The position numbers and the translations under genes were made by a program. This document shows positions 7,122-40,708 of a DNA stretch of 40,708 nt, piece by piece. This DNA comes from an uncultured Candidatus Saccharibacteria bacterium (GTDB lineage Bacteria > Patescibacteriota > Minisyncoccia > Minisyncoccales > Staskawiczbacteraceae): contig CAYIDV010000001.1 of NCBI GenBank assembly GCA_964362315.1, positions 9,263 to 49,970 of the forward strand, written 5' to 3'. Numbering within the stretch: the first letter of the stretch is position 1; each line of letters opens with the position of its first letter. The notes under the pieces are model-generated. The model was not told the origin of the DNA, ran no database searches, and saw nothing but the letters and a program-made list of their open reading frames with translations.

Positions 7122-7997
7122 CTATAATTTTTGGCATTGGGGACAGAAAAAGGCACTTCTGCCGCCGAATTTCAATCTTTTAATTATTGTTTTGCAACGA
7201 AAACATTTTTGCCCTTCTCTTTTATAAGCTTTTCTTTCATCGTCAAAATTGCCTTTTTTGCCTTCAACATTTCTATAATCAGAAAAACTTTCTCCGCCCA
7301 ACTCAATTCCTTTATGTAAAACCCTTTTTATGGATTGATAAAGTAAATTTAATTCTTTTTGGGTTAATTTTGAAGTTTCTTTTTGAGGATGAATTTTTGC
7401 CCACCATAAAGCTTCACTGGCATAAATGTTGCCAACTCCGGAAATTACTTCTTGGTTCATTATCACTTGCTTTATTTTTCCTTTTTTATTTTTCAATCTT
7501 TTCTTGAACTTTTCCAATGTAAAACCTTTTTCCAACGGCTCTGGCCCTAAATTTTTAAATTCTTTTAAATTTAATAAATCCTTTGTCTTCCATAGCTCCA
7601 CTTTGGCAAATTTTCTCAAGTCAGACAAGGCAATCTGTTGCCCGTTATCCAAAAAAAACATTATGTGTATGAATAAATTTATTTTTTCATCTAAGGGACC
7701 TCTTTTTACTGGTTTCCAACTTCCAGCTTCCAACTTCCAGTTTCCCACCAAGAGATGCCCCGTCATTTTTTGGTGAACCAAAAGAGAATAGCCGTCAGAT
7801 AAATCAAAAATAATATTTTTTGCCCGGCGCCAGACTTTTTTTATTTCTTTGCCTTTTAATTCTTTTTTAAAAATTTTAAAATCCTTTGGTTTTTTAATTG
7901 TCTTTACCCAATCTGACCAGACATCAACAAAGGTCCTTTTGAGGACCTTTGTATTTAAACCGTTTACCGTCGTCTCTACCTCGGGAAGTTCGGGCAT
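7122..7997 (-). CDS. mutM: Formamidopyrimidine-DNA glycosylase
   Basis: The 291-aa product has the N-terminus MPELPEVE and a C-terminal zinc finger, CFRCKTIIKRLKFGGRSAFFCPQCQ. Confidence 0.93.
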   Translation of the reverse strand: MPELPEVETTVNGLNTKVLKRTFVDVWSDWVKTIKKPKDFKIFKKELKGKEIKKVWRRAKNIIFDLSDGYSLLVHQKMTGHLLVGNWKLEAGSWKPVKRGPLDEKINLFIHIMFFLDNGQQIALSDLRKFAKVELWKTKDLLNLKEFKNLGPEPLEKGFTLEKFKKRLKNKKGKIKQVIMNQEVISGVGNIYASEALWWAKIHPQKETSKLTQKELNLLYQSIKRVLHKGIELGGESFSDYRNVEGKKGNFDDERKAYKREGQKCFRCKTIIKRLKFGGRSAFFCPQCQKL

Positions 7998-8563: not shown

Positions 8564-9448
8564 CTAAAAAACAATAGTGGATAATCTGTCAACAAGGCTA
8601 TTGAATCCTAATTGATAAAAGACGTTTTTTACTTTCTGCTGGTCAAAATTTCCAAACTTGCATAACTCCAAATCAAAATCTAAGGGAACGTCTTTTTTAG
8701 TTTGGACCAATTGCAAGGACAAAAAAGCGCTTTGTTTATTGTTTTTCAACGCCTCTTTGATTTTCGGCTTTAAAACAGCCGTGTCGGTTGCCAGTTCTGA
8801 GTAAAGGTTTTCAATTCTGCCGAATTTTTGGATTAATTCGGCCGCCGTTTTTTTTCCAATTCCTGGAACACCGGGCACATTGTCTGAAGCGTCTCCGGTC
8901 AGAGCCTTAAAATCGTTCATTTGTGAAGGTTTTACGCCGAATCTTTCCAAAACTTTTTCTTCATCATATAAAACACTGTCTTTTATGCCTTTACCTAAGG
9001 TATATACTTTTATTTTTTCATCAACAAGCTGAAGATTATCCAAATCTCCGCTTAAAATAAAAACTTCTGCCTCGCCTTTAACTTTGTTGGCGATAGTAGC
9101 AATCAAATCATCGGCTTCAAAACCGTCTTTTTCAAAAATAGGCACCTTAAATGATTCTAAAACTTCTTTCATTATTGGTATTTGAGAAACTATTCCTTCT
9201 GGCGTTTGGGGCCTGTGTATTTTATATTCTTTAAACTCTTGGTGACGAAAAGTCGGCTTTTCGGTATCAAAACAAGCAACAATGTAGTTTGCTTTTAAGT
9301 CTTTTATCGCCTTGAATAGAGTTAATAAAAAACCATATACTGCGCCCGTCGGCTGCCCCTTTTTATTTGTCAGCGGCGGCAAAGCATGAAAAGCCCTATA
9401 TAGTAAAGAATGACAGTCTATGATAATAAGTCTCTTATCTGTGGCCAT
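8564..9448 (-). CDS. Stand-alone 5'-3' exonuclease (Pol I N-terminal domain / FEN-like)
   Basis: The 294-aa product begins LIIIDCHSLLYRAFHALPPL. It also carries GFEADD, LSGDLD, and the H3TH motif LTGDASDNVPGVPGIGKKTA. Confidence 0.9.
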   Translation of the reverse strand: MATDKRLIIIDCHSLLYRAFHALPPLTNKKGQPTGAVYGFLLTLFKAIKDLKANYIVACFDTEKPTFRHQEFKEYKIHRPQTPEGIVSQIPIMKEVLESFKVPIFEKDGFEADDLIATIANKVKGEAEVFILSGDLDNLQLVDEKIKVYTLGKGIKDSVLYDEEKVLERFGVKPSQMNDFKALTGDASDNVPGVPGIGKKTAAELIQKFGRIENLYSELATDTAVLKPKIKEALKNNKQSAFLSLQLVQTKKDVPLDFDLELCKFGNFDQQKVKNVFYQLGFNSLVDRLSTIVF

Positions 9449-9480
9449 AAAAATAATACGAATTTTCTATTTTTTAAAAT

Positions 9481-9515
9481 TTCCAATTCCTAATTCCTAA
9501 TTTCTAATTTCTAAA
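9481..9515. repeat. Tandem array of five heptamers (TTCCAAT TCCTAAT TCCTAAT TTCTAAT TTCTAAA)
   Basis: This was read directly from the sequence. It lies 33 nt upstream of the exonuclease start codon. Confidence 0.85.
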
Positions 9516-26473: not shown

Positions 26474-28270
26474 TTACCCCGTTGCCAATTTCTTTCTGGC
26501 TTCTTTGATTTTTTCCACTTCCTCGGGATTAGTGGTTATAATTTGGTCTTCTGTATAGCTGGCTTTTACGCTGATAAAAACGTGTTTTCTTCCGGCAAAA
26601 AAAAGTCCTTCACCCACTGCCGATTCTAACAACAGCATTTTTTCTTGTTCAGTCAAATCAAATGTTTTCTGCAACAGCTCAATGGCTGCGGGCGACTGTT
26701 TTAGCAAAAGCTGCAGAGAGGAGTTTGTAATAATGGCTTTTCCATAAGACGACTTCATAAAATCTTCTACATCTTGGGTAATAGTGGTTACCCCCAGCCA
26801 GTATTTTCTGGCCCTTTTTACCACACCAAACAAAAATGAGGCGCCGTCTTCTGAATTAATCAACCACCAAGCCTCGTCAATCACCAAAATTCTCCTTTTG
26901 GCTTCCGTCCTGATGATGTTCCAGACATAACGCATTATCATAAACAAAGCCACTGGTTTTAAAGATTCCTGCATGTCTTTTAAACCAAAGACGATAAAGT
27001 TTTTATCAATTTCAATATTGGATTTTTGGTTGAAAAACCCAGCAAATGTCCCCTGGGTGAATTTTTTAAGCCGTCTGGTCATAGATTCTGCTCCTGACAT
27101 GTTTTCTAAAATCTCAGCCAAGTCAGACATAACAGGTATCTTTTCCTGCCAAGTATTTGGGTTAGATTGCGGGGTAATGTCTCTGAGGGAGTAAGTTTCG
27201 CTGATGGCCTGGTCTAAAATACTGTCTTCTTCAATGGTTAGCCCTCCTAACATTATTCTTAAAAATCCCACTAAATTTATTACGTTTGACCTTAAAATGT
27301 CTTCTGGGTTGTCATCGGGCCCTGGAGTAGGCAAGTCAAATGGATTGACGTGGCTTTTTGAGGTTAAAGATATCCTAAAAAAATTACCACCGACGCCGTC
27401 GGCCAAAAATTCGTATTCGTTTTCCGGGTCAATAACAATAATATCAATTCCCGTCATCAAATACCTTAAAATTTCCAGTTTGACCGCGTACGATTTGCCC
27501 GCTCCCGATTTGGCAAACACCACCATGTTAGAATTTTCCAGAGAGAACCGGTCAAATAGCACCAGAGAACTGTTATGGCCGTTAATGCCATATAAAATTC
27601 CTTCATTAGAGCTTAAATCAAAAGAAATAAAAGGAAAAGTGGTTGAAAGTGGCTCTGTGTTAATGGGGATATTGGTTGAAAGCAGGTCTAAGCCGTAAGG
27701 GCTGGTTGAAATAAAACCTTCTTTTTGCCTGAAGAGAGCTGGTTTTATGTATATTAAACGGGATTCAAAAATAGACCTTAAAGTTGTCTCTGTTTCTTTT
27801 ATTTTTTCTTCTGTATTCTCATATACGGTAAGATACAACCCAAATCTGAACATTTTTTCTTGGGATGTTACTATTTTATCCCTCAAATTCTCAATATCTT
27901 GATAGCCGGCTTCCAAAACAGGGTCGCGGATAAGCCCCTTTTCCTGCCTTTCTAATAATTCCGAAGATACTTGGGTAATTTTTTTTCTCAATTTTTTTAA
28001 AATCAACTCGTTGCTTACCGGGTAGATAAAAAAAGATATGTCCATTGGCGAATTTAAGTTAATGACCGGAGAAAGCCATCCTGTATCCAAATACCTGGGA
28101 TAGGAAAAAATAAAAAATGATTTGGCAATTCTTTCCTCAAGCTTTATATAATTTTGAGTTATCCCCAAGTAGGGCGGGGCAATAACATCCTTTATGTTAA
28201 AACTTGCCTCATCAACTATTTTATCCTCTGTTTCAACCTCTTTTTTCTTTTTGAAAAAGGGAAAATCCAT
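26474..28270 (-). CDS. virB4: VirB4/TrbE-family type IV secretion ATPase
   Basis: The 598-aa product has the N-terminal motif FIFSYPRYLDTGWLSPV, the Walker A FAKSGAGKSY and the Walker B RILVIDEAWW. Confidence 0.85.
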   Translation of the reverse strand: MDFPFFKKKKEVETEDKIVDEASFNIKDVIAPPYLGITQNYIKLEERIAKSFFIFSYPRYLDTGWLSPVINLNSPMDISFFIYPVSNELILKKLRKKITQVSSELLERQEKGLIRDPVLEAGYQDIENLRDKIVTSQEKMFRFGLYLTVYENTEEKIKETETTLRSIFESRLIYIKPALFRQKEGFISTSPYGLDLLSTNIPINTEPLSTTFPFISFDLSSNEGILYGINGHNSSLVLFDRFSLENSNMVVFAKSGAGKSYAVKLEILRYLMTGIDIIVIDPENEYEFLADGVGGNFFRISLTSKSHVNPFDLPTPGPDDNPEDILRSNVINLVGFLRIMLGGLTIEEDSILDQAISETYSLRDITPQSNPNTWQEKIPVMSDLAEILENMSGAESMTRRLKKFTQGTFAGFFNQKSNIEIDKNFIVFGLKDMQESLKPVALFMIMRYVWNIIRTEAKRRILVIDEAWWLINSEDGASFLFGVVKRARKYWLGVTTITQDVEDFMKSSYGKAIITNSSLQLLLKQSPAAIELLQKTFDLTEQEKMLLLESAVGEGLFFAGRKHVFISVKASYTEDQIITTNPEEVEKIKEARKKLATG

Positions 28271-28278
28271 GACTATAG

Positions 28279-28732
28279 ATTAAAAATTAAAAATTAAATA
28301 TTAAAAATACAAAGTAAAAATTAAAAATCACCTCTTGCCTTTTAAAGTAATAATACTTGAAGCGAAGATATTTGATATTTCATTTAACTCTTTTAAAAAC
28401 CATTCTACATCTTCTGGCTTCACTCTTTTAGTATCTCGCAATAAAGCCAACCACAACTTGCTTTCATTAGCTGATTTTAATGAAATAGAGAAAAAGTTTG
28501 TAAAATCTTTTTTACTACTGGCAGCTTGTCCCTCTATGTAGTTACTAAGAATACTTGTTCCGCTTCTTAAAAGTTGGTCGCTAATCCTTTTAGATACATT
28601 ATCGTTGTGTAGCCTATCTATAAATTGAATGAGCTTTATAACGAAATTATACAATCTTCTCTTAAAATCACTCTTATCTTTTTTCATTTTAATCTGTATT
28701 TTTGATTTTTGATATTTTATTTTTTTAAATTT
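28279..28732. mobile_element. Cassette 1: four-helix-bundle gene plus inverted A/T heptamer arrays
   Basis: The left flank carries TAAAAAT-type heptamers (28281-28329). The right flank carries their complement, (A/G)ATTTTT-type units (28694-28732). The inner inverted repeat 28300-28318 versus 28688-28706 matches 16 of 19. Confidence 0.4.
28328..28687 (-). CDS. Four-helix-bundle protein (23S rRNA intervening-sequence protein / Avd-like family)
   Basis: The 119-aa product carries the motifs QLLRSGTSILSNYIEGQAASSKKDF and ESKLWLALL. Confidence 0.85.
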   Translation of the reverse strand: MKKDKSDFKRRLYNFVIKLIQFIDRLHNDNVSKRISDQLLRSGTSILSNYIEGQAASSKKDFTNFFSISLKSANESKLWLALLRDTKRVKPEDVEWFLKELNEISNIFASSIITLKGKR

Positions 28733-29395
28733 TTATCTAAGTAGTTCCGGTGCTATTTGGGGAGAATACCCAACTTCTGCTTCTGACGGATGATGTATTG
28801 ACCAAAGCAATTCAATCAACTCAGGAGTTGTTAGGGGGAAAACATCAAGGCCGCATCTTTTTAATCCCATTGCCAAAAACTCCATTCTTTGCCAGAGCTG
28901 GCCCTTGAATTTTTCAAAATCCTCATCTTTCATCTGCTGGTCTCGACCTCTCCCTTTACCGAATAACTTTGCAAAAGTAGATTGGCTTACCGCAGTTTTT
29001 ACTCCTAACCCCTGTATGAGTGTGTAGGGCACGATCAGGTAAAAACTTTTGGTCATAATTTGCTCTCCCTTTACTAATTCTTTTATAAATTCAGCGTAAG
29101 AAGATATTTGTGTTTTCAGAAGTTCATTGGTTTGTCTTTCTTCTAAAGCCCTGATACTTTCTAAGTAAGGAGTGATATTGATATGTCTTGACTGAATGAT
29201 GATTTGACAAAAAAAATCCAAAGAGTTTAAAAAACTTTGAAAGCTGTAAATGATAGCTGACTGGGTCTCTAAAGACTGCAAAGCAAAATTTACAGAAGAA
29301 ACCTGCAAAATTCCTCGTATATCGTTGTTTTCTAAAATTAAGACTCCGTCTTTAATGTCTTTTATTTTTAAAAATTCCTGGGTAGTTGGCTCCAT
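28733..29395 (-). CDS. Hypothetical protein of the T4SS-like operon
   Basis: The 220-aa product has an N-terminus (FLKIKDIKDGVLILENNDIRGILQVSSVNFAL) reminiscent of the N-terminal region of Gram-positive VirB4-like proteins. It has no P-loop. Confidence 0.5.
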   Translation of the reverse strand: MEPTTQEFLKIKDIKDGVLILENNDIRGILQVSSVNFALQSLETQSAIIYSFQSFLNSLDFFCQIIIQSRHINITPYLESIRALEERQTNELLKTQISSYAEFIKELVKGEQIMTKSFYLIVPYTLIQGLGVKTAVSQSTFAKLFGKGRGRDQQMKDEDFEKFKGQLWQRMEFLAMGLKRCGLDVFPLTTPELIELLWSIHHPSEAEVGYSPQIAPELLR

Positions 29396-29401
29396 TTCTA
29401 A

Positions 29402-29852
29402 AATTTTAAATTCTAAATTTTAAATCAAATTTTAATTATTAAATTTTAAAACTCTATTTTATTTTGTATTTAAAGCTATTTTTGAAAATATCAAAGTCAA
29501 TTCTTGAGCTTCTTTCCATAATTTTCTACACTCGGGAGCAAAACTTTCAATTGTTTTTGCTAAAATTCTTAACCAATACTTAGTTTCTCTACACTCTTTT
29601 TTACATATAAATATTTTATTCTTGAAATCTTTCTTAGAACTTGCCCCATTTGCTTCCATATAATTAGCTCCTATGCTTGTTCCTGATTTTACTAGTTGAC
29701 CGATAATCGGTTTTGTTATCGTATCTTGTGGTAATTTTTTACAAAAGCTAATAATATTTTCTGAAAACTTAGCAGTTCTTTCTTCCAGGTCGTATTCCAT
29801 GTTTTTTAAAATTTTGGTTTCAATTAAAATTTAAAATTTAGAATTTAAAATT
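29402..29852. mobile_element. Cassette 2: four-helix-bundle gene bounded by perfect 24-nt inverted repeats
   Basis: AATTTTAAATTCTAAATTTTAAAT (29402-29425) is the exact reverse complement of 29829-29852, checked base by base. The cassette fills the intergenic gap to within 1-6 nt of the neighbouring stop and start codons. Confidence 0.6.
29459..29800 (-). CDS. Four-helix-bundle protein (23S rRNA IVS protein / Avd-like family)
   Basis: The 113-aa product carries the motifs QLVKSGTSIGANYMEANGASSKKDF and ETKYWLRIL. Confidence 0.85.
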   Translation of the reverse strand: MEYDLEERTAKFSENIISFCKKLPQDTITKPIIGQLVKSGTSIGANYMEANGASSKKDFKNKIFICKKECRETKYWLRILAKTIESFAPECRKLWKEAQELTLIFSKIALNTK

Positions 29853-29853
29853 A

Positions 29854-30141
29854 TCATTTATTTTCTTTCTTCCACACATAGTTTTTTGGTCCAGTCATAA
29901 ATCCAAAGTAATTAAAAACTGCCTTAATCACAGATTGGTTGTTAATTCTAATAAAAGCTATTGCTACAACTAAAATAGCAACAACCAATGAAAAAATCAC
30001 AAAAAGATAAACAGGCAGGGTTAAAAACATTATAAAACAAACAACTCCTCCTCCAACGAGCAGAAAAAACTGCCTGAAAGTCAGAAAAAAAACAATTTTT
30101 GATTCTTCTTCAATAAATTGAGGAATGGGGTACTGAGCCAT
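29854..30141 (-). CDS. PrgI/VirB3-like small membrane protein
   Basis: The 95-aa product has the N-terminus YPIPQFIEEESKIVFFLTFRQFFLL followed by two TM helices. This matches the PrgI-family pattern. Confidence 0.6.
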   Translation of the reverse strand: MAQYPIPQFIEEESKIVFFLTFRQFFLLVGGGVVCFIMFLTLPVYLFVIFSLVVAILVVAIAFIRINNQSVIKAVFNYFGFMTGPKNYVWKKENK

Positions 30142-30641
30142 TTGGGTGTTAGGTGTTAGATGTTAGGTTCTAGTCTTTCAAAGACTTTCCTAAATTAGTT
30201 AACATCTTTCCACAAACATCGTATTCTTTTAAAAAATAATTTAACTTTTCTTCATTTATACATCGTTTTTGAAATGATATTTTTAAATGATGAATTGTTT
30301 CCCTGATTTCTCCCTGTGCCCTGCTGATTCCTTCCAAATAGATATTTGTATGTTTATTATTAAATCCTTCCGCTAAATTTGCCGGTGCCGAATTTGAAGA
30401 TCTTCTTAGTTGCGAACCTATTTCAAATAATTCAAACCTTGGAAGAGACAAAGTTAAATTATGTATTTCAATGGCTAAATCAAATAGTTTTTTATAAACA
30501 TCTAAATCATCTACCGAATTAAATTTCATATTACCTAATATCTATTCTATGATTATACTACATCATAAGAAATATTAAAAACGTACTTGTGGATTAGATA
30601 AATTTATTCTAATATCCAATACCCAAAACCCAACACCCAAA
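30142..30641. mobile_element. Cassette 3: four-helix-bundle gene bounded by imperfect G/T-rich heptamer inverted repeats
   Basis: TTTGGGTGTTAGGTGTTAGATGTTAGG (30141-30167) compared with the reverse complement of 30615-30641 (TTTGGGTGTTGGGTTTTGGGTATTGGA) matches 20 of 27, and the first 10 nt are identical. Confidence 0.5.
30170..30529 (-). CDS. Four-helix-bundle protein (23S rRNA IVS protein / Avd-like family), divergent member
   Basis: The 119-aa product carries SQLRRSSNSAPANLAEGF and a C-terminal helix pair. Confidence 0.75.
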   Translation of the reverse strand: MKFNSVDDLDVYKKLFDLAIEIHNLTLSLPRFELFEIGSQLRRSSNSAPANLAEGFNNKHTNIYLEGISRAQGEIRETIHHLKISFQKRCINEEKLNYFLKEYDVCGKMLTNLGKSLKD

Positions 30642-30672: not shown

Positions 30673-30782
30673 AATGTATGGTTTAACCTGAGCGTTTCAG
30701 GTTAACTAAATCGCCCTTTGACAACTTGTCCCGTTAAGCTTCGCGTGTGCGGAGCATACCGGACTTTTCTGGAGGGATGAAT

Positions 30783-32090
30783 ATGGATAAGCATAAGCTA
30801 CTAGCACGGCTGTTGCGAGGTTTTGTCGTCACATTGGTGATAGCTCCCATTTTTGGGGCAGGTATTGCTATCTTTACCTTTGATTGGAGGTCTTTCAACT
30901 GGATTGACTGGCTTGTGTTTTCGCTTACGGTCATTTGGTACATCGGTTCGTGGTCCAACACCGTAAACCCCGACTTTATCGCCTTTCGTCAGTGGTTTGG
31001 CTATGTTGAAAGAAGAACCTTAAGGCCAGGTCCCCACTTTGTACCATGGTTTCCGGGCATAAGGTTGCGCCGTATGTATGTGGGGATGCATCAGTTCACT
31101 TACCAGGCGGACCCGAACTCAAACAAACCGAGCTATGAAAGGTCGGGGGACCAAATAGCCGTCCGCTCATTTGACCGGCAAAAAATGCACACTGATTCCA
31201 CCTTTTTCTTTAGGGTGCCATTAGAGGATGAAGACCAACTTATCCACATCATCGAATCTGGCGTACCAATCGATGATGTGGTCGAGTTAAAGCGTTGGGT
31301 AGAAAACGGATTTTCTACTCATATGCTTTCTGTATTTGGCAAGCACCCCTTTGATAAGGTGATTGGTGGCAAGATGAACGAAGAGCTAAGCAAGGATGTT
31401 AACGAATTGTTGCAAAAGCCCGACAGCCTGTTTGTCAGGTGTGGACTTTTCGACAAGAGCGCTACTACGTTCAATCTGGAAGGAACTGGCGAGGCGTACC
31501 TTAGGATTGAGTACGTCCATGTGTCCGAAGACCTCGGCAAGCGCCTTGAGGAGGTTGAAACATCCCGTATTGGAGAAGAGGCCAACATGGCAGCTGCTGA
31601 AGTTCGGGTGAAAACATCCAAACTAGATGCAGATGCCGCTTTAAACGTTGCTATGGGTAATGCTCACTTGGTTGGCGGCGTGGTTGAAATAGCGCTTGAC
31701 CAGTGGGTTGCGGGCGAAGCCAAGAGGATGGGTAAAACTGTTGCCGAAGCAGCAGCACTTCTTAAGAAAAGTGGTGCTTATGAATGGAAGGAAACGGCAC
31801 TTCACAAACTGCAAAGCCAAGCTTTGGCTGGTGGAGGCACTTTCACCCGCACCGAGCAGGACCTTAACATCCACTCTGGCGGAGAGCCTTTGGGAGACTC
31901 CAACATAGCCGGTTTTATCGGCGCCGCTGGTGGTGCTGCAATGGCAATAGCTGCTGCCATGAAAGGCAGTAGAGCTGATCCATCGGGTGGTGGTTCTGGC
32001 CAAGGCCAAAATCCCAGTGGAACTAGGAACAAGAACAAGAAGAAAAAGAACGAAAGCGATGAAGACTTCAAAAAGCGTTACGGAGGGTGA
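30783..32090 (+). CDS. SPFH/band-7 (prohibitin-like) domain membrane protein with a Gly/Ala-rich, Lys-rich tail
   Basis: GGAGGG lies 6-7 nt before the ATG at 30783; the ORF-track GTG is at 30747. Two TM helices are followed by FGYVERRTLRPGPHFVPWFPG, which is typical of SPFH entry strands. GC is about 48-57% in sampled lines. Confidence 0.55.
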   Translation: MDKHKLLARLLRGFVVTLVIAPIFGAGIAIFTFDWRSFNWIDWLVFSLTVIWYIGSWSNTVNPDFIAFRQWFGYVERRTLRPGPHFVPWFPGIRLRRMYVGMHQFTYQADPNSNKPSYERSGDQIAVRSFDRQKMHTDSTFFFRVPLEDEDQLIHIIESGVPIDDVVELKRWVENGFSTHMLSVFGKHPFDKVIGGKMNEELSKDVNELLQKPDSLFVRCGLFDKSATTFNLEGTGEAYLRIEYVHVSEDLGKRLEEVETSRIGEEANMAAAEVRVKTSKLDADAALNVAMGNAHLVGGVVEIALDQWVAGEAKRMGKTVAEAAALLKKSGAYEWKETALHKLQSQALAGGGTFTRTEQDLNIHSGGEPLGDSNIAGFIGAAGGAAMAIAAAMKGSRADPSGGGSGQGQNPSGTRNKNKKKKNESDEDFKKRYGG

Positions 32091-32783: not shown

Positions 32784-35495
32784 TTAGGCCGTATTAATTT
32801 TATCTATAACATCTTTCAAATTGTCTGCTTCCTTATTTTTACCTGCTAATCTTAATCTATCAAGCTCATCTCTCATTTCAGACATTTTTACAGGATCAGT
32901 AACCCACTTCTTTAACTCATTAAACTTAGATGTAGGCAACCTGTCTATTTGTTTGCCTAAAGATTTTGCCCTTATATTTCTTAGGAATGCTACATTTCCC
33001 ATTGCGCTCTTTGACAAGTTTGATATCTTATCTGTCCTTTGGTAATCTTCATTAACTAACTCTTGCTCAGCATCGCCATATGTCGTTTGCCAGGGCAAAT
33101 TTTTTGTTACGGCAATTTCTCTTGCTCTTCTCTCTATTGCTGGTCTGTCATATTTCCTGTATAGAGGATTTGACTTTATGGCCTCTCGTAAAGTATTTGA
33201 GCGATATTTGTCGTTTGATTCTTGCATCAATTCTCCAACAACCTTATAGTCGTCATCAATCATATCAAGTATATTTCTTTTATTTGCTTCATGCAAAAAC
33301 TTTGCTCCTCTGGCAGTTTTTTCTTTAGCCTCCTTTATAACGTCTTTGTCGCTCATATTTTCTATATTATCTATTTTCATCATAGCAAAGTTATGAGATT
33401 GCACATCTCTTGTAGCCTTTGTCTGGGCTTCTCCCAAAGACATTCCATTTTTTATGTCTTGGTCATACCTTGCCATAAATTCTTTAAATTTCTTTGCATC
33501 AACCAAATCGGCATTGTTTTTGGTGAAATCGCTTCCTGAAATTCCAAATCTCATTGCATTATTCATGGCTTCCTGCTGTTTTTCTTTGTTGCCGAGCAAA
33601 TAAAGCGCATCATTTTGGGCTAACACAGTATCAATAGCGGCTCGTTCCTCATCAAATACTGCGCTTTTTCTCATGTTAAATAGCGCTTGACTGCCTCTAT
33701 TTTCTTGCACGGCTTTATATCTTTTTAATGGTTCTTCCGTCTTTTTTCTGTTTCTTTCTTGTTGCGCTAAATCAGCAGTTCCCGGGTCAATTGCCCCACT
33801 CCATTCTCCCACCCTTGTTGCCCAGTCAGACACTGTTGCCTTAATATTGCTTCTGCCACTTAATACAATACCCGCGCCCCTTAATGCAGTTGCCATTCCA
33901 TTTAGCGCCATATCTGTTGTAGCTCCTGCGCCAGTTGTTATTCCCTTCCATGCCACTGGTGCACCAGTTTTTATTCCTTGCCAAACAGAGCCTGGCGCAG
34001 CGTTTATTGAATTCTTTGTAGCTTCCCACCCGTTTCTCCATACATTTGGATCTTTTATAGCTGAAACAGCAGCTCCTCCAGTTTGCCATAGGGCACTTAC
34101 ACCGCTCATCAATGCCCCTGGAGCGGCTTTTATCCCTCTTAATCCCACTCCTGGCGCAGCTTTTAGCCCTTCCCACCCAGCTCTTGCTCCAGTTCTTATA
34201 CCTCGTGCTCCAGCTCTTATACCTCGTGCTCCTGTTTTTATGCCTTCCAAACTAAAAGCTTTGCCAGCCGCTGATTTAATGCCGCTTGCCATACTTTTCC
34301 ATCCCTCCTTACTCCCTAATTTGGTTAATCCCTTCCCGCCCATCTTTAATGCCCCTTTTCCTACTGTTCCCGCCAGAGAAGCGCCGCCAGTGATAATTGC
34401 TGCTACAATTGCGGCGGTGGCTGCCATTACCAATTTAGCTATGGCGCTGGATTTCATTGCCAATTTTAGGCCAATGAGCATAAACATTAAAACAATTAAA
34501 AGATGAGTCGTATTTTTGACAAGTGCTATATAGATGGCTTGTGCTCCACTTGTATCTATAAATTCAGGGTTGAAAGATGCAAGCACATCCATAGCTAATC
34601 TTAAAAAAAAGGTTGCTATCAACCCGGCAAAACACCATTTCAAGAATTGCTGCCACCAAGTGCTCCAAGCCTTCTTTGCCCCCTCAAAAGGAAAAACCCT
34701 TAAGGCAAAAGCCAAGGGCGACAAAATAAACAAAATTGCCAACATAGCGTATCTTATTACATATGTTAATATTAGCCAGAAAAAAGTTGCCGCAACCGTA
34801 AGATGAATCAAACCAAGATAAGAGCTAATCCCAAAAAACTCTGCCGCCTTCACTATATCAGGAGTCCTTTTATCTAATTCTCCCCAGATTGCATGTATTT
34901 GACCTACCATCCCAGTTGAAGAATCAACAGTGTTAATTCCCAAAAAACTTAGCATAGCGATATTGGCTATATCAATCATAAAGCCGACAAATACTAAAGA
35001 AAAATTGATTAAAAGAGCGGTTATTAACAAAGGAACTAATAATTTTTTGTACTGGTCCAAACTTAAAATGAAAGCCACGGCCACCCCTATGAATCCCAGC
35101 GTTAAAATTATATTGGCCCATAATTTTACAGCATTCCAGGCAGCTACAAAAACAGGGGCTAAATAAGAAGTGTCAATATTTGTTATTGCCCATCTGCCCA
35201 ACTCATCTTTTAAAAGAATATTGGTAACAGCACTAAATACATAAGACAAAACATAAGCAGCGGTGTAACCAATATAATAAATAGAATAGGCAAGTCCTTC
35301 TAATATTGCAATCGCAATCTGTTCTAAACTAGGAATAACTGCTTTAATACCTGCAAAACCTAGACGCAATACTTTGGCTATGGGGCCGAATTGAGCTTCT
35401 ACTCTGTTTGGCAGTAAAATTCCTAATAAAACAAAAAACAAAACAAGAGAAAACCCTATTCTTTTATGTTTTAACAAAGAGTTAAAAATGGACAT
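32784..35495 (-). CDS. Large polytopic membrane protein (VirB6/TrbL-like role inferred) with a Gly/Ala-rich repeat linker and a soluble C-terminal domain
   Basis: The product is 903 aa. The first ~370 aa hold at least 8 hydrophobic segments. GARGIRAGARGIRTGARAGWEGLKAAPG repeats follow, then a charged domain of about 350 aa. The role is inferred from its position next to VirB4/PrgI-like genes. Confidence 0.45.
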   Translation of the reverse strand: MSIFNSLLKHKRIGFSLVLFFVLLGILLPNRVEAQFGPIAKVLRLGFAGIKAVIPSLEQIAIAILEGLAYSIYYIGYTAAYVLSYVFSAVTNILLKDELGRWAITNIDTSYLAPVFVAAWNAVKLWANIILTLGFIGVAVAFILSLDQYKKLLVPLLITALLINFSLVFVGFMIDIANIAMLSFLGINTVDSSTGMVGQIHAIWGELDKRTPDIVKAAEFFGISSYLGLIHLTVAATFFWLILTYVIRYAMLAILFILSPLAFALRVFPFEGAKKAWSTWWQQFLKWCFAGLIATFFLRLAMDVLASFNPEFIDTSGAQAIYIALVKNTTHLLIVLMFMLIGLKLAMKSSAIAKLVMAATAAIVAAIITGGASLAGTVGKGALKMGGKGLTKLGSKEGWKSMASGIKSAAGKAFSLEGIKTGARGIRAGARGIRTGARAGWEGLKAAPGVGLRGIKAAPGALMSGVSALWQTGGAAVSAIKDPNVWRNGWEATKNSINAAPGSVWQGIKTGAPVAWKGITTGAGATTDMALNGMATALRGAGIVLSGRSNIKATVSDWATRVGEWSGAIDPGTADLAQQERNRKKTEEPLKRYKAVQENRGSQALFNMRKSAVFDEERAAIDTVLAQNDALYLLGNKEKQQEAMNNAMRFGISGSDFTKNNADLVDAKKFKEFMARYDQDIKNGMSLGEAQTKATRDVQSHNFAMMKIDNIENMSDKDVIKEAKEKTARGAKFLHEANKRNILDMIDDDYKVVGELMQESNDKYRSNTLREAIKSNPLYRKYDRPAIERRAREIAVTKNLPWQTTYGDAEQELVNEDYQRTDKISNLSKSAMGNVAFLRNIRAKSLGKQIDRLPTSKFNELKKWVTDPVKMSEMRDELDRLRLAGKNKEADNLKDVIDKINTA
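34186..34248. repeat. Three tandem 21-nt units inside the 903-aa gene
   Basis: The units are GCTCCAGTTCTTATACCTCGT / GCTCCAGCTCTTATACCTCGT / GCTCCTGTTTTTATGCCTTCC. They encode the (A/T)GARGIR repeats. Confidence 0.8.
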
Positions 35496-36379: not shown

Positions 36380-37258
36380 TTATATGTTTATAGACTGACT
36401 ATTAGCTAACTTTTCCCAGTCAAGAACGCTTAAAGTTTCTGCCCTTTGTTTTGGATTTATTTTATTTTTTAAAAGCCAGGCATTTACCTGGATTTTATCA
36501 ATTTTTAATGAACCAGACAGGTTATTTGCCAATTGTTTTCTGGGTTGGGAAAATCCGGCTTTAACTATTTTAAAGAATTTTTTGGCATCTATTTTAAGGT
36601 TTTTAATATCTGATATTTTAATGATGGCCGAGTCAATTTTTGGGGCGGGCCAAAAACATTTTTTTGAAATATAAGAAATTATCTTTGGTTTTGCGTAAAA
36701 CTGAACAGAAACCGCCAACAAACTCATTCTTGCCCCCACACCAGAAGTTCTTTTAGAACTTTGGTGTGGGGGTGAAGGCGGTCTGGCGCAAATTCTTTGC
36801 GCTACCTCCTTTTGAATCATTAAAATAATTTTGTCAGGAGGGTTTTTTGACTCCAAAAATTTTCTTATAAGAGGCGAAGTTAAATAATAGGGAATATTAG
36901 CAACTAACTTGTAGCTTTTAGCTTTTAGATTATAGCTTTTAGGGTTAAATTTTAAAATATTATCATTGATAGTTTCTATGTTTTTGTAATCTTTCAGTGT
37001 TTCTTTTAAAATTTCAATCATTAACTTGTCCTTTTCTACAGTAATAACTTTACCCGCTCTTTTGGCCAATTCTTTTGTAAGAGTTCCTATGCCCGGCCCC
37101 ACTTCCAAAATAATGTCTTTTGCAGTCAGTTCAGCCGCTTCAATTATCTTATTTAAAGCTCCTTGGTTTACTAAAAAATTTTGGCCCATTATTTTTGAAG
37201 GCCTGTTTTTGTATTTTGATAGCAGCAGTTTTATAGTTTTAACAGAAAGTAGGTTCAT
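36380..37258 (-). CDS. rsmA: 16S rRNA (adenine1518/1519-N6)-dimethyltransferase
   Basis: The 292-aa product contains GQNFL, the SAM-binding motif EVGPGIGTLT, NIPY, and FWPAPKIDSAII. It also carries an extra segment, PSPPHQSSKRTSGVGAR. Confidence 0.93.
   Translation of the reverse strand: MNLLSVKTIKLLLSKYKNRPSKIMGQNFLVNQGALNKIIEAAELTAKDIILEVGPGIGTLTKELAKRAGKVITVEKDKLMIEILKETLKDYKNIETINDNILKFNPKSYNLKAKSYKLVANIPYYLTSPLIRKFLESKNPPDKIILMIQKEVAQRICARPPSPPHQSSKRTSGVGARMSLLAVSVQFYAKPKIISYISKKCFWPAPKIDSAIIKISDIKNLKIDAKKFFKIVKAGFSQPRKQLANNLSGSLKIDKIQVNAWLLKNKINPKQRAETLSVLDWEKLANSQSINI
36733..36772. repeat. 40-nt hairpin palindrome inside the rsmA coding sequence
   Basis: CCCCCACACCAGAAGTTCTTTTAGAACTTTGGTGTGGGGG forms 18 bp with one bulge and a 3-nt loop. 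It coincides with the extra peptide in RsmA. Confidence 0.85.
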
Positions 37259-40387: not shown

Positions 40388-40424
40388 GAAAAAAGCCCTG
40401 CAAAACTAAGAAATTTTGCAGGGC
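40388..40424 (-). terminator. Rho-independent terminator of the zinc-ribbon repeat gene
   Basis: The minus strand reads GCCCTGCAAAA-TTTCTTAG-TTTTGCAGGGC followed by TTTTTTCTTTC. Confidence 0.7.
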
Positions 40425-40430
40425 GGGTTT

Positions 40431-40708
40431 TCACAATATAGCTGCCATTTTTACACGTCTTTGCGACTGGTAGCAACCGTAGCAAAGCCCAAGCGCCTGA
40501 ATGGTTTTTGTTTCTTTGCACTTGGCGCATTTGCCAATTTTGCTCCGCCGGTAGCAGGCAGGACAGACAGCTTTGCCGTCTTCAGTGCGCATTGCCACCG
40601 GCTTGACCTCTCCACATTCAGAGCACTTCTCATGGGTGGAAGGGTCTTTGCGGTAGCAGGCATGACAGACAGCTTTGCCGTCTTCAGTGCGCATTGCCAC
40701 CGGCTTGA
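40431..40708 (-). CDS. Partial (N-terminus outside the window) multi-zinc-ribbon repeat protein, GC-rich
   Basis: The reading frame is open to the window edge. It has at least 3 C-x2-C...GK-x-VC-x2-CY modules (KCSECGEVKPVAMRTEDGKAVCPACYRR). The final module, KCAKCKETKTIQALGLCYGCY, is a variant that lacks the GK-x-VC spacing. Confidence 0.6.
   Translation of the reverse strand, partial: KPVAMRTEDGKAVCHACYRKDPSTHEKCSECGEVKPVAMRTEDGKAVCPACYRRSKIGKCAKCKETKTIQALGLCYGCYQSQRRVKMAAIL
40549..40708. repeat. Tandem 102-bp (34-aa) coding repeat
   Basis: The 58 nt at 40549-40606 and at 40651-40708 differ at one position. The repeat continues to the window edge. Confidence 0.85.

Follow-up and report, generated by a model that had tools for sequence, protein, structure and literature searches.

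Candidate mobile cassettes of four-helix-bundle genes and inverted heptamer arrays at the junctions of a VirB4 operon

Introduction

Intervening sequences (IVSs) of 23S rRNA that bear an open reading frame (ORF) were reportedly described by Ralph and McClelland in 1993, and the short tandemly repeated repetitive (STRR) heptamers of cyanobacteria are said to go back to Mazel and colleagues in 1990. The protein family PF05635/TIGR02436, to which the IVS ORFs belong, adopts a four-helix bundle (4HB) and has two solved structures, and we know of no function for it. The present work deals with three genes of this family, each bracketed by two inverted arrays of 7-nt units, which occupy successive gaps of a VirB4 operon in an uncultured Candidatus Saccharibacteria bacterium (assembly GCA_964362315.1, contig CAYIDV010000001.1). 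The 40,708 nucleotides that were analysed (positions 9,263 to 49,970 of the contig) are referred to as the window, and each gene together with its arrays, or arms, as a cassette. A solved relative of the cassette proteins is a pentameric ring.

The best-described system of comparison is the 23S IVS of Coxiella, which has a 28-bp terminal stem, is excised by RNase III and carries two to three GACAGAT heptamers before an ORF of the same kind, this ORF being in decay and probably untranslated (Warrier et al. 2016, PMC4990558). ORFs named 23S_rRNA_IVP were also found within 16S/23S insertions of the Candidate Phyla Radiation (CPR), at insertion sites shared with LAGLIDADG ORFs (10.1101/2024.02.27.582315). 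Such ORFs have been reported inside cas loci as well. Heptamer repeats, for their part, are over-represented in bacteria without explanation (PMC4692102), and in Xanthomonas campestris about 186 arrays of GGGAATC, 70 of them as convergent pairs, were reported with neither a function nor a mention of a 4HB gene (Rehm et al. 2015, PMC4692102); 83% of the Xanthomonas arrays lie at the same positions in two species (PMC4692102). No account of 4HB cassettes at operon junctions was found in our literature search, most subscription journals lying outside it, and heptamer arrays were found described neither as a general feature of the 4HB family nor as linked to it through GGGAATC or STRR arrays.

Three four-helix-bundle genes between inverted heptamer arrays

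The three paralogous ORFs were verified on the window's minus strand, at 28328..28687 (cassette 1, 119 aa), 29459..29800 (cassette 2, 113 aa) and 30170..30529 (cassette 3, 119 aa, SxxxNxxE family). A preliminary description of this DNA had assigned them to the 23S-IVS-protein/4HB family on shared motifs, and the profile hidden Markov model (HMM) search bore this out, with scores for cassettes 1, 2 and 3 of 73.2, 58.2 and 89.8 bits for PF05635 (curated cut-off 33.8 bits) and of 88.7, 77.0 and 87.0 bits for TIGR02436 (cut-off 24), all above the cut-offs. The motifs were found in the ORFs as described, and Q40, S47, N51, E54 and E77 are invariant in an alignment of 16 4HB sequences. The window ORFs thus combine a GxxRxxxSxxxNxxE-type motif with similarity to a solved 4HB protein, that of cassette 3 resembling PDB 2GSC (XCC0516 of Xanthomonas) at E=3e-6. 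The proteins of cassettes 1 and 2 are basic (pI 9.9 and 9.3). No further ORF of the PF05635/TIGR02436 type was found elsewhere in the window, and the family as a whole is large (4554 clusters at E≤1e-20, for one query with 8000 candidates scored).

Arrays with a 7-nt period were detected by Tandem Repeats Finder (TRF) at all six flanks (28279-28328, 28698-28724, 29401-29450, 29824-29852, 30145-30168 and 30611-30640), and in each cassette the two form an inverted repeat. The clearest pair is that of cassette 2, where the 5′ arm at 29803..29852 (minus strand; TTAAAAT x4.1 on the plus strand) faces the 3′ arm at 29402..29451 (minus strand; AAATTTT x7.4), which ends 6 nt short of the start of the downstream 220-aa gene. 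The perfect 24-nt inverted repeat that had been claimed here was confirmed as a pairing of 24-25 bp, and with 76% complementarity the repeat reaches 50 nt; the energy of the arm duplex was reached by none of 300 shuffles (z=-4.8), and the fold of the cassette contains a 25-bp stem (z=-2.25). In cassette 1 the 5′ arm at 28687..28724 (minus strand; ATTTTTG x3.9 on the plus strand) begins about 8 nt past the stop codon of the 220-aa gene, and the 3′ arm at 28279..28328 (minus strand; ATTAAAA x7.3) stops 8 nt short of the start codon of VirB4. The inverted pair was present as described, although the match of 16 of 19 nt given for it was understated, the arms being complementary at 78-82% over 38-46 nt.

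The inverted flanks of cassette 3 were also found, over 33 nt at 73% complementarity. Its 5′ arm at 30609..30641 (minus strand) is made up, when read as the sense strand, of about four GGGTGTT/GGGTTTT units (TRF: AATACCC x4.3 at 30611-30640) and is followed by a spacer of 79 nt at 30530..30608 (minus strand), which contains a TATAAT-like hexamer whose role as a promoter is at most putative. The 3′ arm at 30141..30173 (minus strand; GGTGTTA x3.4 on the plus strand) overlaps the stop codon of the ORF and abuts the start codon of the PrgI gene (30139-30141). A related locus, L025:1300, carries an ORF with 86% amino-acid (tblastn) and 81% nucleotide identity to that of cassette 3 at the same junction, together with an orthologous 5′ arm and the same spacer layout. 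The full-length fold of cassette 3 is more stable than expected (z=-2.8, i.e., -2.83).

The closeness of the flanks to the neighbouring codons was likewise as described, all arms ending 0-8 nt from a stop or start codon, and when the flank pairs were folded the minimum-free-energy RNA of the sense strand paired both flanks in three out of three cassettes. All three read in the same direction as the operon, and they represent three different arm lineages. The arms of the window are unequal in their individual strength, so the case rests on evidence at the level of the family.

Further arrays of 7-nt units occur in the window outside the cassettes. A solo array at 9478-9514 (5.3 x AATTTCT, or TAGAAAT/TAGGAAT in the sense strand) lies within the 5′ leader of a 5′-3′ exonuclease gene, past a terminator-like hairpin; no partner arm and no cassette ORF were found with it, and its unit is unlike those of all three cassettes. 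Three others, at 1560-1595 (TTCCAAA), 7714-7745 (TTCCAAC) and 36908-36942 (CTTTTAG), are situated inside uvrB, fpg and ksgA-like ORFs, and no inverted partner was found for these.

Occupancy, copying and decay in related loci

The operon was compared in 80 related loci (one genome per species) with VirB4 identities of 59-83%, which come from Parcubacteria, Candidatus Staskawiczbacteria among them. In most of these the two internal junctions, i.e., those between PrgI and the 220-aa gene (TraC-N, see below) and between TraC-N and VirB4, measure 0-30 nt and often consist of an ATGA-type overlap of stop and start codons. In the closer relatives filled junctions of 437-537 nt hold a 4HB gene, remnant junctions of 75-160 nt hold two inverted arrays and no ORF, and short gaps of 16-28 nt resemble a single array. 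The presence/absence polymorphism that the preliminary description had proposed as a test is therefore real, with empty, filled and remnant junctions among the 80. The cassettes are insertions into the stop/start junctions of the PrgI, TraC-N, VirB4 operon, and the related loci support the earlier proposal of an mRNA operon colonised by self-contained cassettes, each of which brings its own pair of inverted heptamer flanks.

An iterated HMM search gave 35 4HB genes in the related loci and the window together, 35/35 on the operon strand. Nearly all of them share one layout, in which the upstream stop codon is followed after 0-5 nt by an arm of 3-7 units, 10-25 nt, the ORF, 5-25 nt, the second arm and, after about 5-12 nt, the ATG of the next gene; in L005, L006 and L015 the first arm unit includes this stop codon, a TAG. 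Copying between junctions is seen in L010, where two cassette copies are 99.6% identical over 495 nt and occupy different junctions, one between PrgI and TraC-N and the other downstream of VirB4, behind a promoter-like TTGACA-17-TAAAAT. Related cassettes with 73-79% nucleotide identity are found at different junctions in different genomes (the cassette of L001 between TraC-N and VirB4, for example, is 79% identical to that of L012 between PrgI and TraC-N), and the arm lineage with CTAATT units occurs at three junctions. Six ORF-less or truncated copies (in L005, L007, L010, L017, L025 and L039) match the arm type of an intact cassette in their own operon. The cassettes have thus been copied between junctions and have then decayed to ORF-less hairpins and further to gaps resembling one array. 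As many as 42 of 45 cassette ORFs fall within the core of the type IV secretion system (T4SS), which makes up 28% of the sequence (p=2e-20), and local copying, the sole explanation that we can offer, may account for this clustering.

At L005:7627-7932 an ORF-less remnant with CTAATT arms contains a second hairpin nested inside it (CCCAATT / AATTGGG), which suggests that the hairpins themselves serve as insertion targets. In L008, L011 and L031 the last codons of TraC-N form a short hairpin with the first bases after its stop codon (CCGGAATTA..TAATTCCG); that of L031 shows a compensating change (CCAGAATTA..TAATTCTGG), and the cassettes which follow these hairpins differ in their arms.

Large junctions without a 4HB gene were found to hold other small ORFs, so the junctions host a guild of small cassettes. 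Most of these are GxxExxY ORFs (TIGR04256 at 100-111 bits; PF13366, PD-(D/E)XK), at L006:6691-7214, L007:2135-2811, L013:607-1017, L024:531-1021, L026:7524-8001 and L039:7502-8001, with truncated copies in L007 and L061. Their arms are inverted arrays of ACGAAT-, TACTAAT- or CGCGGAA-type motifs at a spacing of 7 nt or looser. A GIY-YIG ORF (PF01541) at L043:2348-2807 has a non-periodic inverted repeat of its own and is nested among other arm remnants, and a second one is located downstream of VirB4 at L055:10250-10513. Two members of this guild carry nuclease folds typical of homing endonucleases.

Arm sequence and selection on the ORFs

The arms of the 35 4HB genes were compared with the flanks of 778 control genes, and the energy of the flank duplex was -39.0 kcal/mol versus -22.7 kcal/mol (p=1e-13). 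Self-similarity was best at a lag of 7 in 27/35 flanks on the upstream side and in 28/35 on the downstream side, whereas the control flanks showed no preferred lag; a few arm lineages have a lag of 8 or 9. The unit itself varies by lineage (AATTTGA, CTAGGGA, TAGGGTT, GTAGTTT, ATCTTGT, TTTTAAA and, in cassette 3 of the window, GGTGTTA), and in the CTAATT lineage it consists of CTAATT plus a variable 2-3 nt.

The 4HB ORFs have dN/dS values of 0.02-0.16, their synonymous sites being almost saturated (pS 0.54-0.76), and this purifying selection shows that the proteins are made and used. The arms are still 66-95% identical between those cassette pairs with near-saturated synonymous sites, i.e., they outlast the synonymous sites, so the sequence of the arms is constrained beyond pairing alone. 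Mismatches between paired arms were as often of the A:C as of the G:U type (G:U versus A:C, 27 vs 31 in the CPR set and 24 vs 36 in metagenomes, without an excess of G:U), and most were transversions. Within the CTAATT lineage the core is invariant and the positions between the cores are uncompensated (1/24 pairs, covariation term +2.58). These comparisons point to arms that are arrays of a conserved recognition core, and not an RNA stem kept for its structure only.

A polarity of the arms, G-rich at the 5′ and C-rich at the 3′ side, was seen in 34 versus 2 cases of the metagenome SIPxNIAEG subfamily and in 16 versus 15 cases of the CPR set. Many of the G-rich metagenome arms (L087-L166) could form G-quadruplexes. 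The idea of a stop codon in every heptamer, by which three units would put stops in all frames, was dropped after a check by eye: it applies to many arms, but several that are rich in G+C (GGGACTG, GGGCAAG, GTCAGGA) carry none.

The same design beyond Parcubacteria

Eighty unrelated metagenome loci with 4HB genes, all of the SIPxNIAEG subfamily, were collected, and full flanks were available for 68 genes. On the upstream side lag 7 was best in 45 flanks and lag 8 in 14, on the downstream side in 37 and 14, and 49 of the 68 inverted-repeat scores beat every shuffle. The neighbouring genes were co-directional in 54/63 cases upstream and 46/62 downstream, the median gaps being 48 and 40 nt. Loci embedded in rRNA were sought among these metagenome matches and none was found, all being flanked by coding sequence; the link to the rRNA IVSs therefore rests on the literature.

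On cyanobacterial plasmids 4HB genes were found between the genes for the two ribonucleotide reductase (RNR) subunits, in two cases between cas6 and cas4, or behind an integrase gene, and five of six have inverted heptamer arrays, clearly so in four (AGTAGGG, GGGTGTA, ACAGGTG and AAGGGAA). The two cas6/cas4 cases belong to type I-D loci, L083 (Anabaena sp. 90 pANA02) and L086 (Pseudanabaena galeata pPg_01); in the latter the arrays, AAAAGCT x14 and AAAAGCC x10, stand in direct orientation. Around the 4HB gene of N. punctiforme (GTCAGGA) the 3′ array is degenerate, and the cassette of Nostoc edaphicum is antisense to its neighbours. The genes called CRISPR-associated 23S_rRNA_IVP may accordingly be junction insertions, and the IVP ORFs of cas loci and of CPR rRNA fit with being junction or helix insertions of the same element.

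In Xanthomonas, a 4HB gene inside inverted GGGAATC arrays was predicted beforehand. The XCC0516-type gene (L173:1929-2372, and L177) was found to split accB from accC and to lie inside such arrays, one of which (CGGGAAT x4.4) starts 6 nt after the accB stop codon and the other (CCCATTC x4.3) ends at the ATG of accC. The design of a 4HB cassette with heptamer arms is thus cross-phylum.

The operon and other features of the window

The order of genes in the invaded operon is, as first described, VirB4, 4HB, the 220-aa gene, 4HB, PrgI and 4HB, with one 4HB gene in each gap. All are on the minus strand. The downstream cistron at 26474..28270 encodes the C-terminal part of a VirB4-like ATPase (598 aa; NF045971 at 341 bits, PF19044). 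The 220-aa gene at 28733..29395 encodes a TraC/VirB4 N-terminal (TrsD-like) domain (NF045975 positions 104-252, NF041427, PF26593), and it represents the N-terminal domain split off from VirB4/TraC, the 598-aa gene matching the remainder. Wherever the contig of a related locus extends past VirB4 on the upstream side, TraC-N was separate from VirB4, the junction usually being 0-25 nt or an overlap, and the order PrgI, TraC-N, VirB4 was kept wherever the contigs suffice; the split VirB4 is therefore regarded as ancestral, and the TraC-N gene as an ancestral cistron of its own that lies outside every cassette. The PrgI-family gene (PF12666) at 29854..30141 encodes 95 aa, versus 128-148 aa in 23/23 relatives examined, and lacks the conserved basic C-terminal tail of roughly 35-50 residues. 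Cassette 2 starts 1 nt past the premature stop codon of PrgI, so its insertion coincides with the loss of the tail.

The window is chromosomal and adjoins the replication origin, with dnaA, dnaN, yidC, jag, uvrB, ruvAB and fpg present. Identical copies of the 220-aa protein are encoded on contigs from Hainich groundwater, all of which have the same three cassettes. Neither the whole window nor the region of 28-31 kb matched any Rfam family, and for this reason a group I or II intron or another curated RNA was ruled out as the identity of the cassettes. The tRNA scan of the window found none, and a scan for sigma-70 and terminator consensus sequences gave no enrichment and no clear promoter of a cassette.

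At 30747-32090 lies a divergent SPFH/Band_7 gene with about 50% G+C, in a region of otherwise 28-40%, which may be of foreign origin. A 21-nt tandem repeat of 3.1 copies occurs at 34181-34245 within the ORF of a 903-aa membrane protein, and at the end of the window (40400-40708) there is a duplication of some 60 nt that code for a Cys-rich stretch.

Discussion

The explanation that we favor, and hold to be rather probable, is that each of the three ORFs is the coding core of a separate IVS-type mobile cassette of 460-500 bp, whose arms are read by its own protein and whose stem loops the cassette out. Such a cassette would consist of a PF05635 gene with an array on either side, the two arrays being inverted and built from a unit of about 7 nt that is specific to the lineage, and would be inserted at a stop/start junction. 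The arrays would be tandem recognition sites for the cassette's own, predicted ring-shaped protein, comparable perhaps to the multiple binding sites in transposon ends. The 4HB protein is the only lineage-specific product with which the lineage-specific arms are linked, and the arrays are for this reason taken as its putative binding sites; the coexistence of three arm types in one operon speaks against one host factor for all of them. Pairing of the arms in the polycistronic transcript may loop out the cassette, and the upstream stop codon would then meet the downstream start codon at the foot of the stem, mimicking the original junction. Rejoined in this way, stop and start would allow the insertion to be tolerated in a translationally coupled operon, and looping-out would also explain why the arms reach up to the codons and why hairpin-only remnants persist. 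The long stem might further be a substrate of RNase III, by analogy with the rRNA IVSs.

Several observations weigh against this explanation. No target-site duplication was clear, the two L010 copies sharing just TG/ATG at their edges and repeat slippage blurring the ends elsewhere, and no reverse transcriptase, transposase or integrase was found in the window by Pfam scans, which covered its 33 largest ORFs out of 58 with 90 aa or more (every one of at least 290 aa and most of at least 170 aa); for a transposase, this negative holds for the cassettes and these window ORFs. To our knowledge the 4HB fold has no catalytic activity. An ORF and its arms would stay together by linkage alone. Within the source population no polymorphism was seen, all 5-6 contigs of that population carrying the three cassettes, so that no present-day activity is apparent, and the conserved positions of the Xanthomonas arrays agree better with stability or a host role than with mobility that is still under way. 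The looping-out step in particular would be expected to leave an RNA-specific signature of pairing, and neither G:U bias nor covariation was found in the arms. The energy of the arm duplex, finally, is modest in cassette 1 (z=-1.9, reached by 11/300 shuffles) and not significant in cassette 3 (z=-0.5), in the latter case because shuffling preserves the complementarity between G/T-rich and C/A-rich strands.

The last point, together with the AT-richness of the genome, is what speaks for chance, i.e., low-complexity AT-rich intergenic DNA beside ordinary small genes, but the family-level statistics are strong, the same design has G+C-rich examples and the junctions are empty in relatives, and we give this explanation practically no credence. 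More serious, though in our judgement unlikely, is the view that the cassettes act purely as IVSs at the RNA level, in which the flanks exist for the stem alone, RNase III excises the cassette and the 7-nt period is incidental (e.g., a product of slippage). The folds that pair the flanks in all three window cassettes, the RNase III cut at the 28-bp terminal stem of the Coxiella IVS with its ORF of the same family (PMC4990558) and the sense orientation of every cassette in the operon set all agree with it. It does not lead one to expect the equal frequency of G:U and A:C mismatches with their prevalence of transversions, the invariant core with uncompensated variable positions in the CTAATT lineage, or a period of 7 nt that is conserved across phyla when the sequence is not; nor does it account for direct arrays (L086), solo arrays or the antisense cassette of Nostoc edaphicum. 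The idea, taken from the preliminary description, of flanks that are in essence an RNase III-type stem thus gains no specific support from the same evidence (no G:U bias, no covariation, direct and solo arrays), though a stem would still form in the transcript and might lead to processing or coupling effects.

A domesticated host system, in which the 4HB protein and the arrays form a post-transcriptional or nucleoid-organising device that tunes coupling, stability or termination in trans, seems to us improbable, even though the strong purifying selection on the ORFs and the fixation of the cassettes in the source population would suit it well, as would the many Xanthomonas arrays conserved in position between two species (PMC4692102) and the 4HB gene at accB/accC in the single Xanthomonas locus examined. 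Against such a device stand the patchy occupancy among close relatives with different lineages at one junction, the decayed and nested copies, the truncation of PrgI beside cassette 2, the three unrelated arm types in one operon, the niche shared with GIY-YIG and PD-(D/E)XK nuclease ORFs, and the presence of the ORF family in rRNA insertions and cas operons. That the genes are remnants or accessories of a diversity-generating retroelement (DGR), for which the fold and Pfam family in common with the accessory protein Avd and a weak match of cassette 3 to the Avd model (E=0.0067) could be cited, is highly improbable, a DGR having been called unlikely from the outset: the Avd model NF033474 scores 16.7 bits versus a cut-off of 80, there is no reverse transcriptase among the scanned ORFs and no pair of template and variable repeats (TR/VR) in the region, where the longest direct repeats are of at most 47 nt with 66-74% identity, and the three copies have different arms.

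If the explanation by mobile IVS-type cassettes is followed further, 4HB genes with inverted heptamer arrays might constitute one cross-phylum class of mobile cassette, in which a ring protein reads tandem 7-nt units, both on the arms of its own cassette and on derivatives that lack an ORF, and which would unite the rRNA IVSs, STRR, GGGAATC, the IVP genes of cas operons and the CPR cassettes, with GxxExxY and GIY-YIG ORFs sharing the niche and Avd possibly recruited from it; this extension is tentative, and we offer it as a possibility. The link between the 4HB family and the heptamers would give both a testable role, and from it one would expect a pentameric ring to interact with tandem repeats in a sequence-specific manner. 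IVS-type elements are, furthermore, not confined to rRNA. For the biology of the CPR it means that small selfish cassettes have a hotspot in a conserved core operon close to oriC, where the truncation of PrgI coincides with an insertion, and for the "CRISPR-associated" 4HB genes a simpler reading is offered, that of possible junction insertions.

Comparison with known systems

The DGR protein Avd is a four-helix bundle that forms a basic pentameric ring, as is the case for the cassette family (pentamers being predicted for the window proteins), but the cassettes of the window have no reverse transcriptase among the scanned ORFs and no TR/VR pair, and they score below the cut-off of the Avd model. 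[quoted passage not shown] They differ from these in that neither a transposase in the scanned ORFs nor a clear target-site duplication was found, and in that the arm sequence is not conserved in the family, whereas its period and layout are.

Free-standing homing endonuclease genes, such as seg and mob of phage T4, and the ORFs of CPR rRNA insertions are likewise small selfish ORFs located between genes or in rRNA, and the homing endonuclease genes have a cycle of empty, intact and degenerate sites in common with the cassettes. Unlike homing endonucleases, the 4HB protein has no known nuclease motif, the window ORFs matching the 4HB family only, and homing endonuclease genes are normally without the repeat-array arms that the cassettes possess. 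The STRR of cyanobacteria and the GGGAATC/GGGGA(T/C)T arrays of Nostoc and Xanthomonas (PMC4692102) are also 7-nt tandem repeats, mostly intergenic and often in convergent inverted pairs, and the GGGAATC arrays are the exact arms of the Xanthomonas 4HB cassette. These repeats were described without an associated gene or a known function, in contrast to the arrays of the window, which have a conserved ORF between them and vary from cassette to cassette.

The closest likeness is to the ORF-bearing 23S rRNA IVSs of Leptospira, Coxiella burnetii and the Xanthomonas type (S23p), which at about 430-500 nt carry the same PF05635 ORF and, like the window cassettes, have terminal inverted repeats, heptamers in the arms (GACAGAT in Coxiella) and a sense orientation in the host transcript. 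RNase III excision is known for the rRNA IVSs, whereas for the window cassettes it is putative, and ORFs of the window type are under purifying selection, unlike the decaying and probably untranslated ORF of the Coxiella IVS. The window cassettes, moreover, sit at the stop/start junctions of a protein-coding operon and not in an rRNA helix. Our verdict on the locus is accordingly that of mobile IVS-type cassettes in a new niche, for which we infer both the mechanism of mobility and the processing by RNase III.

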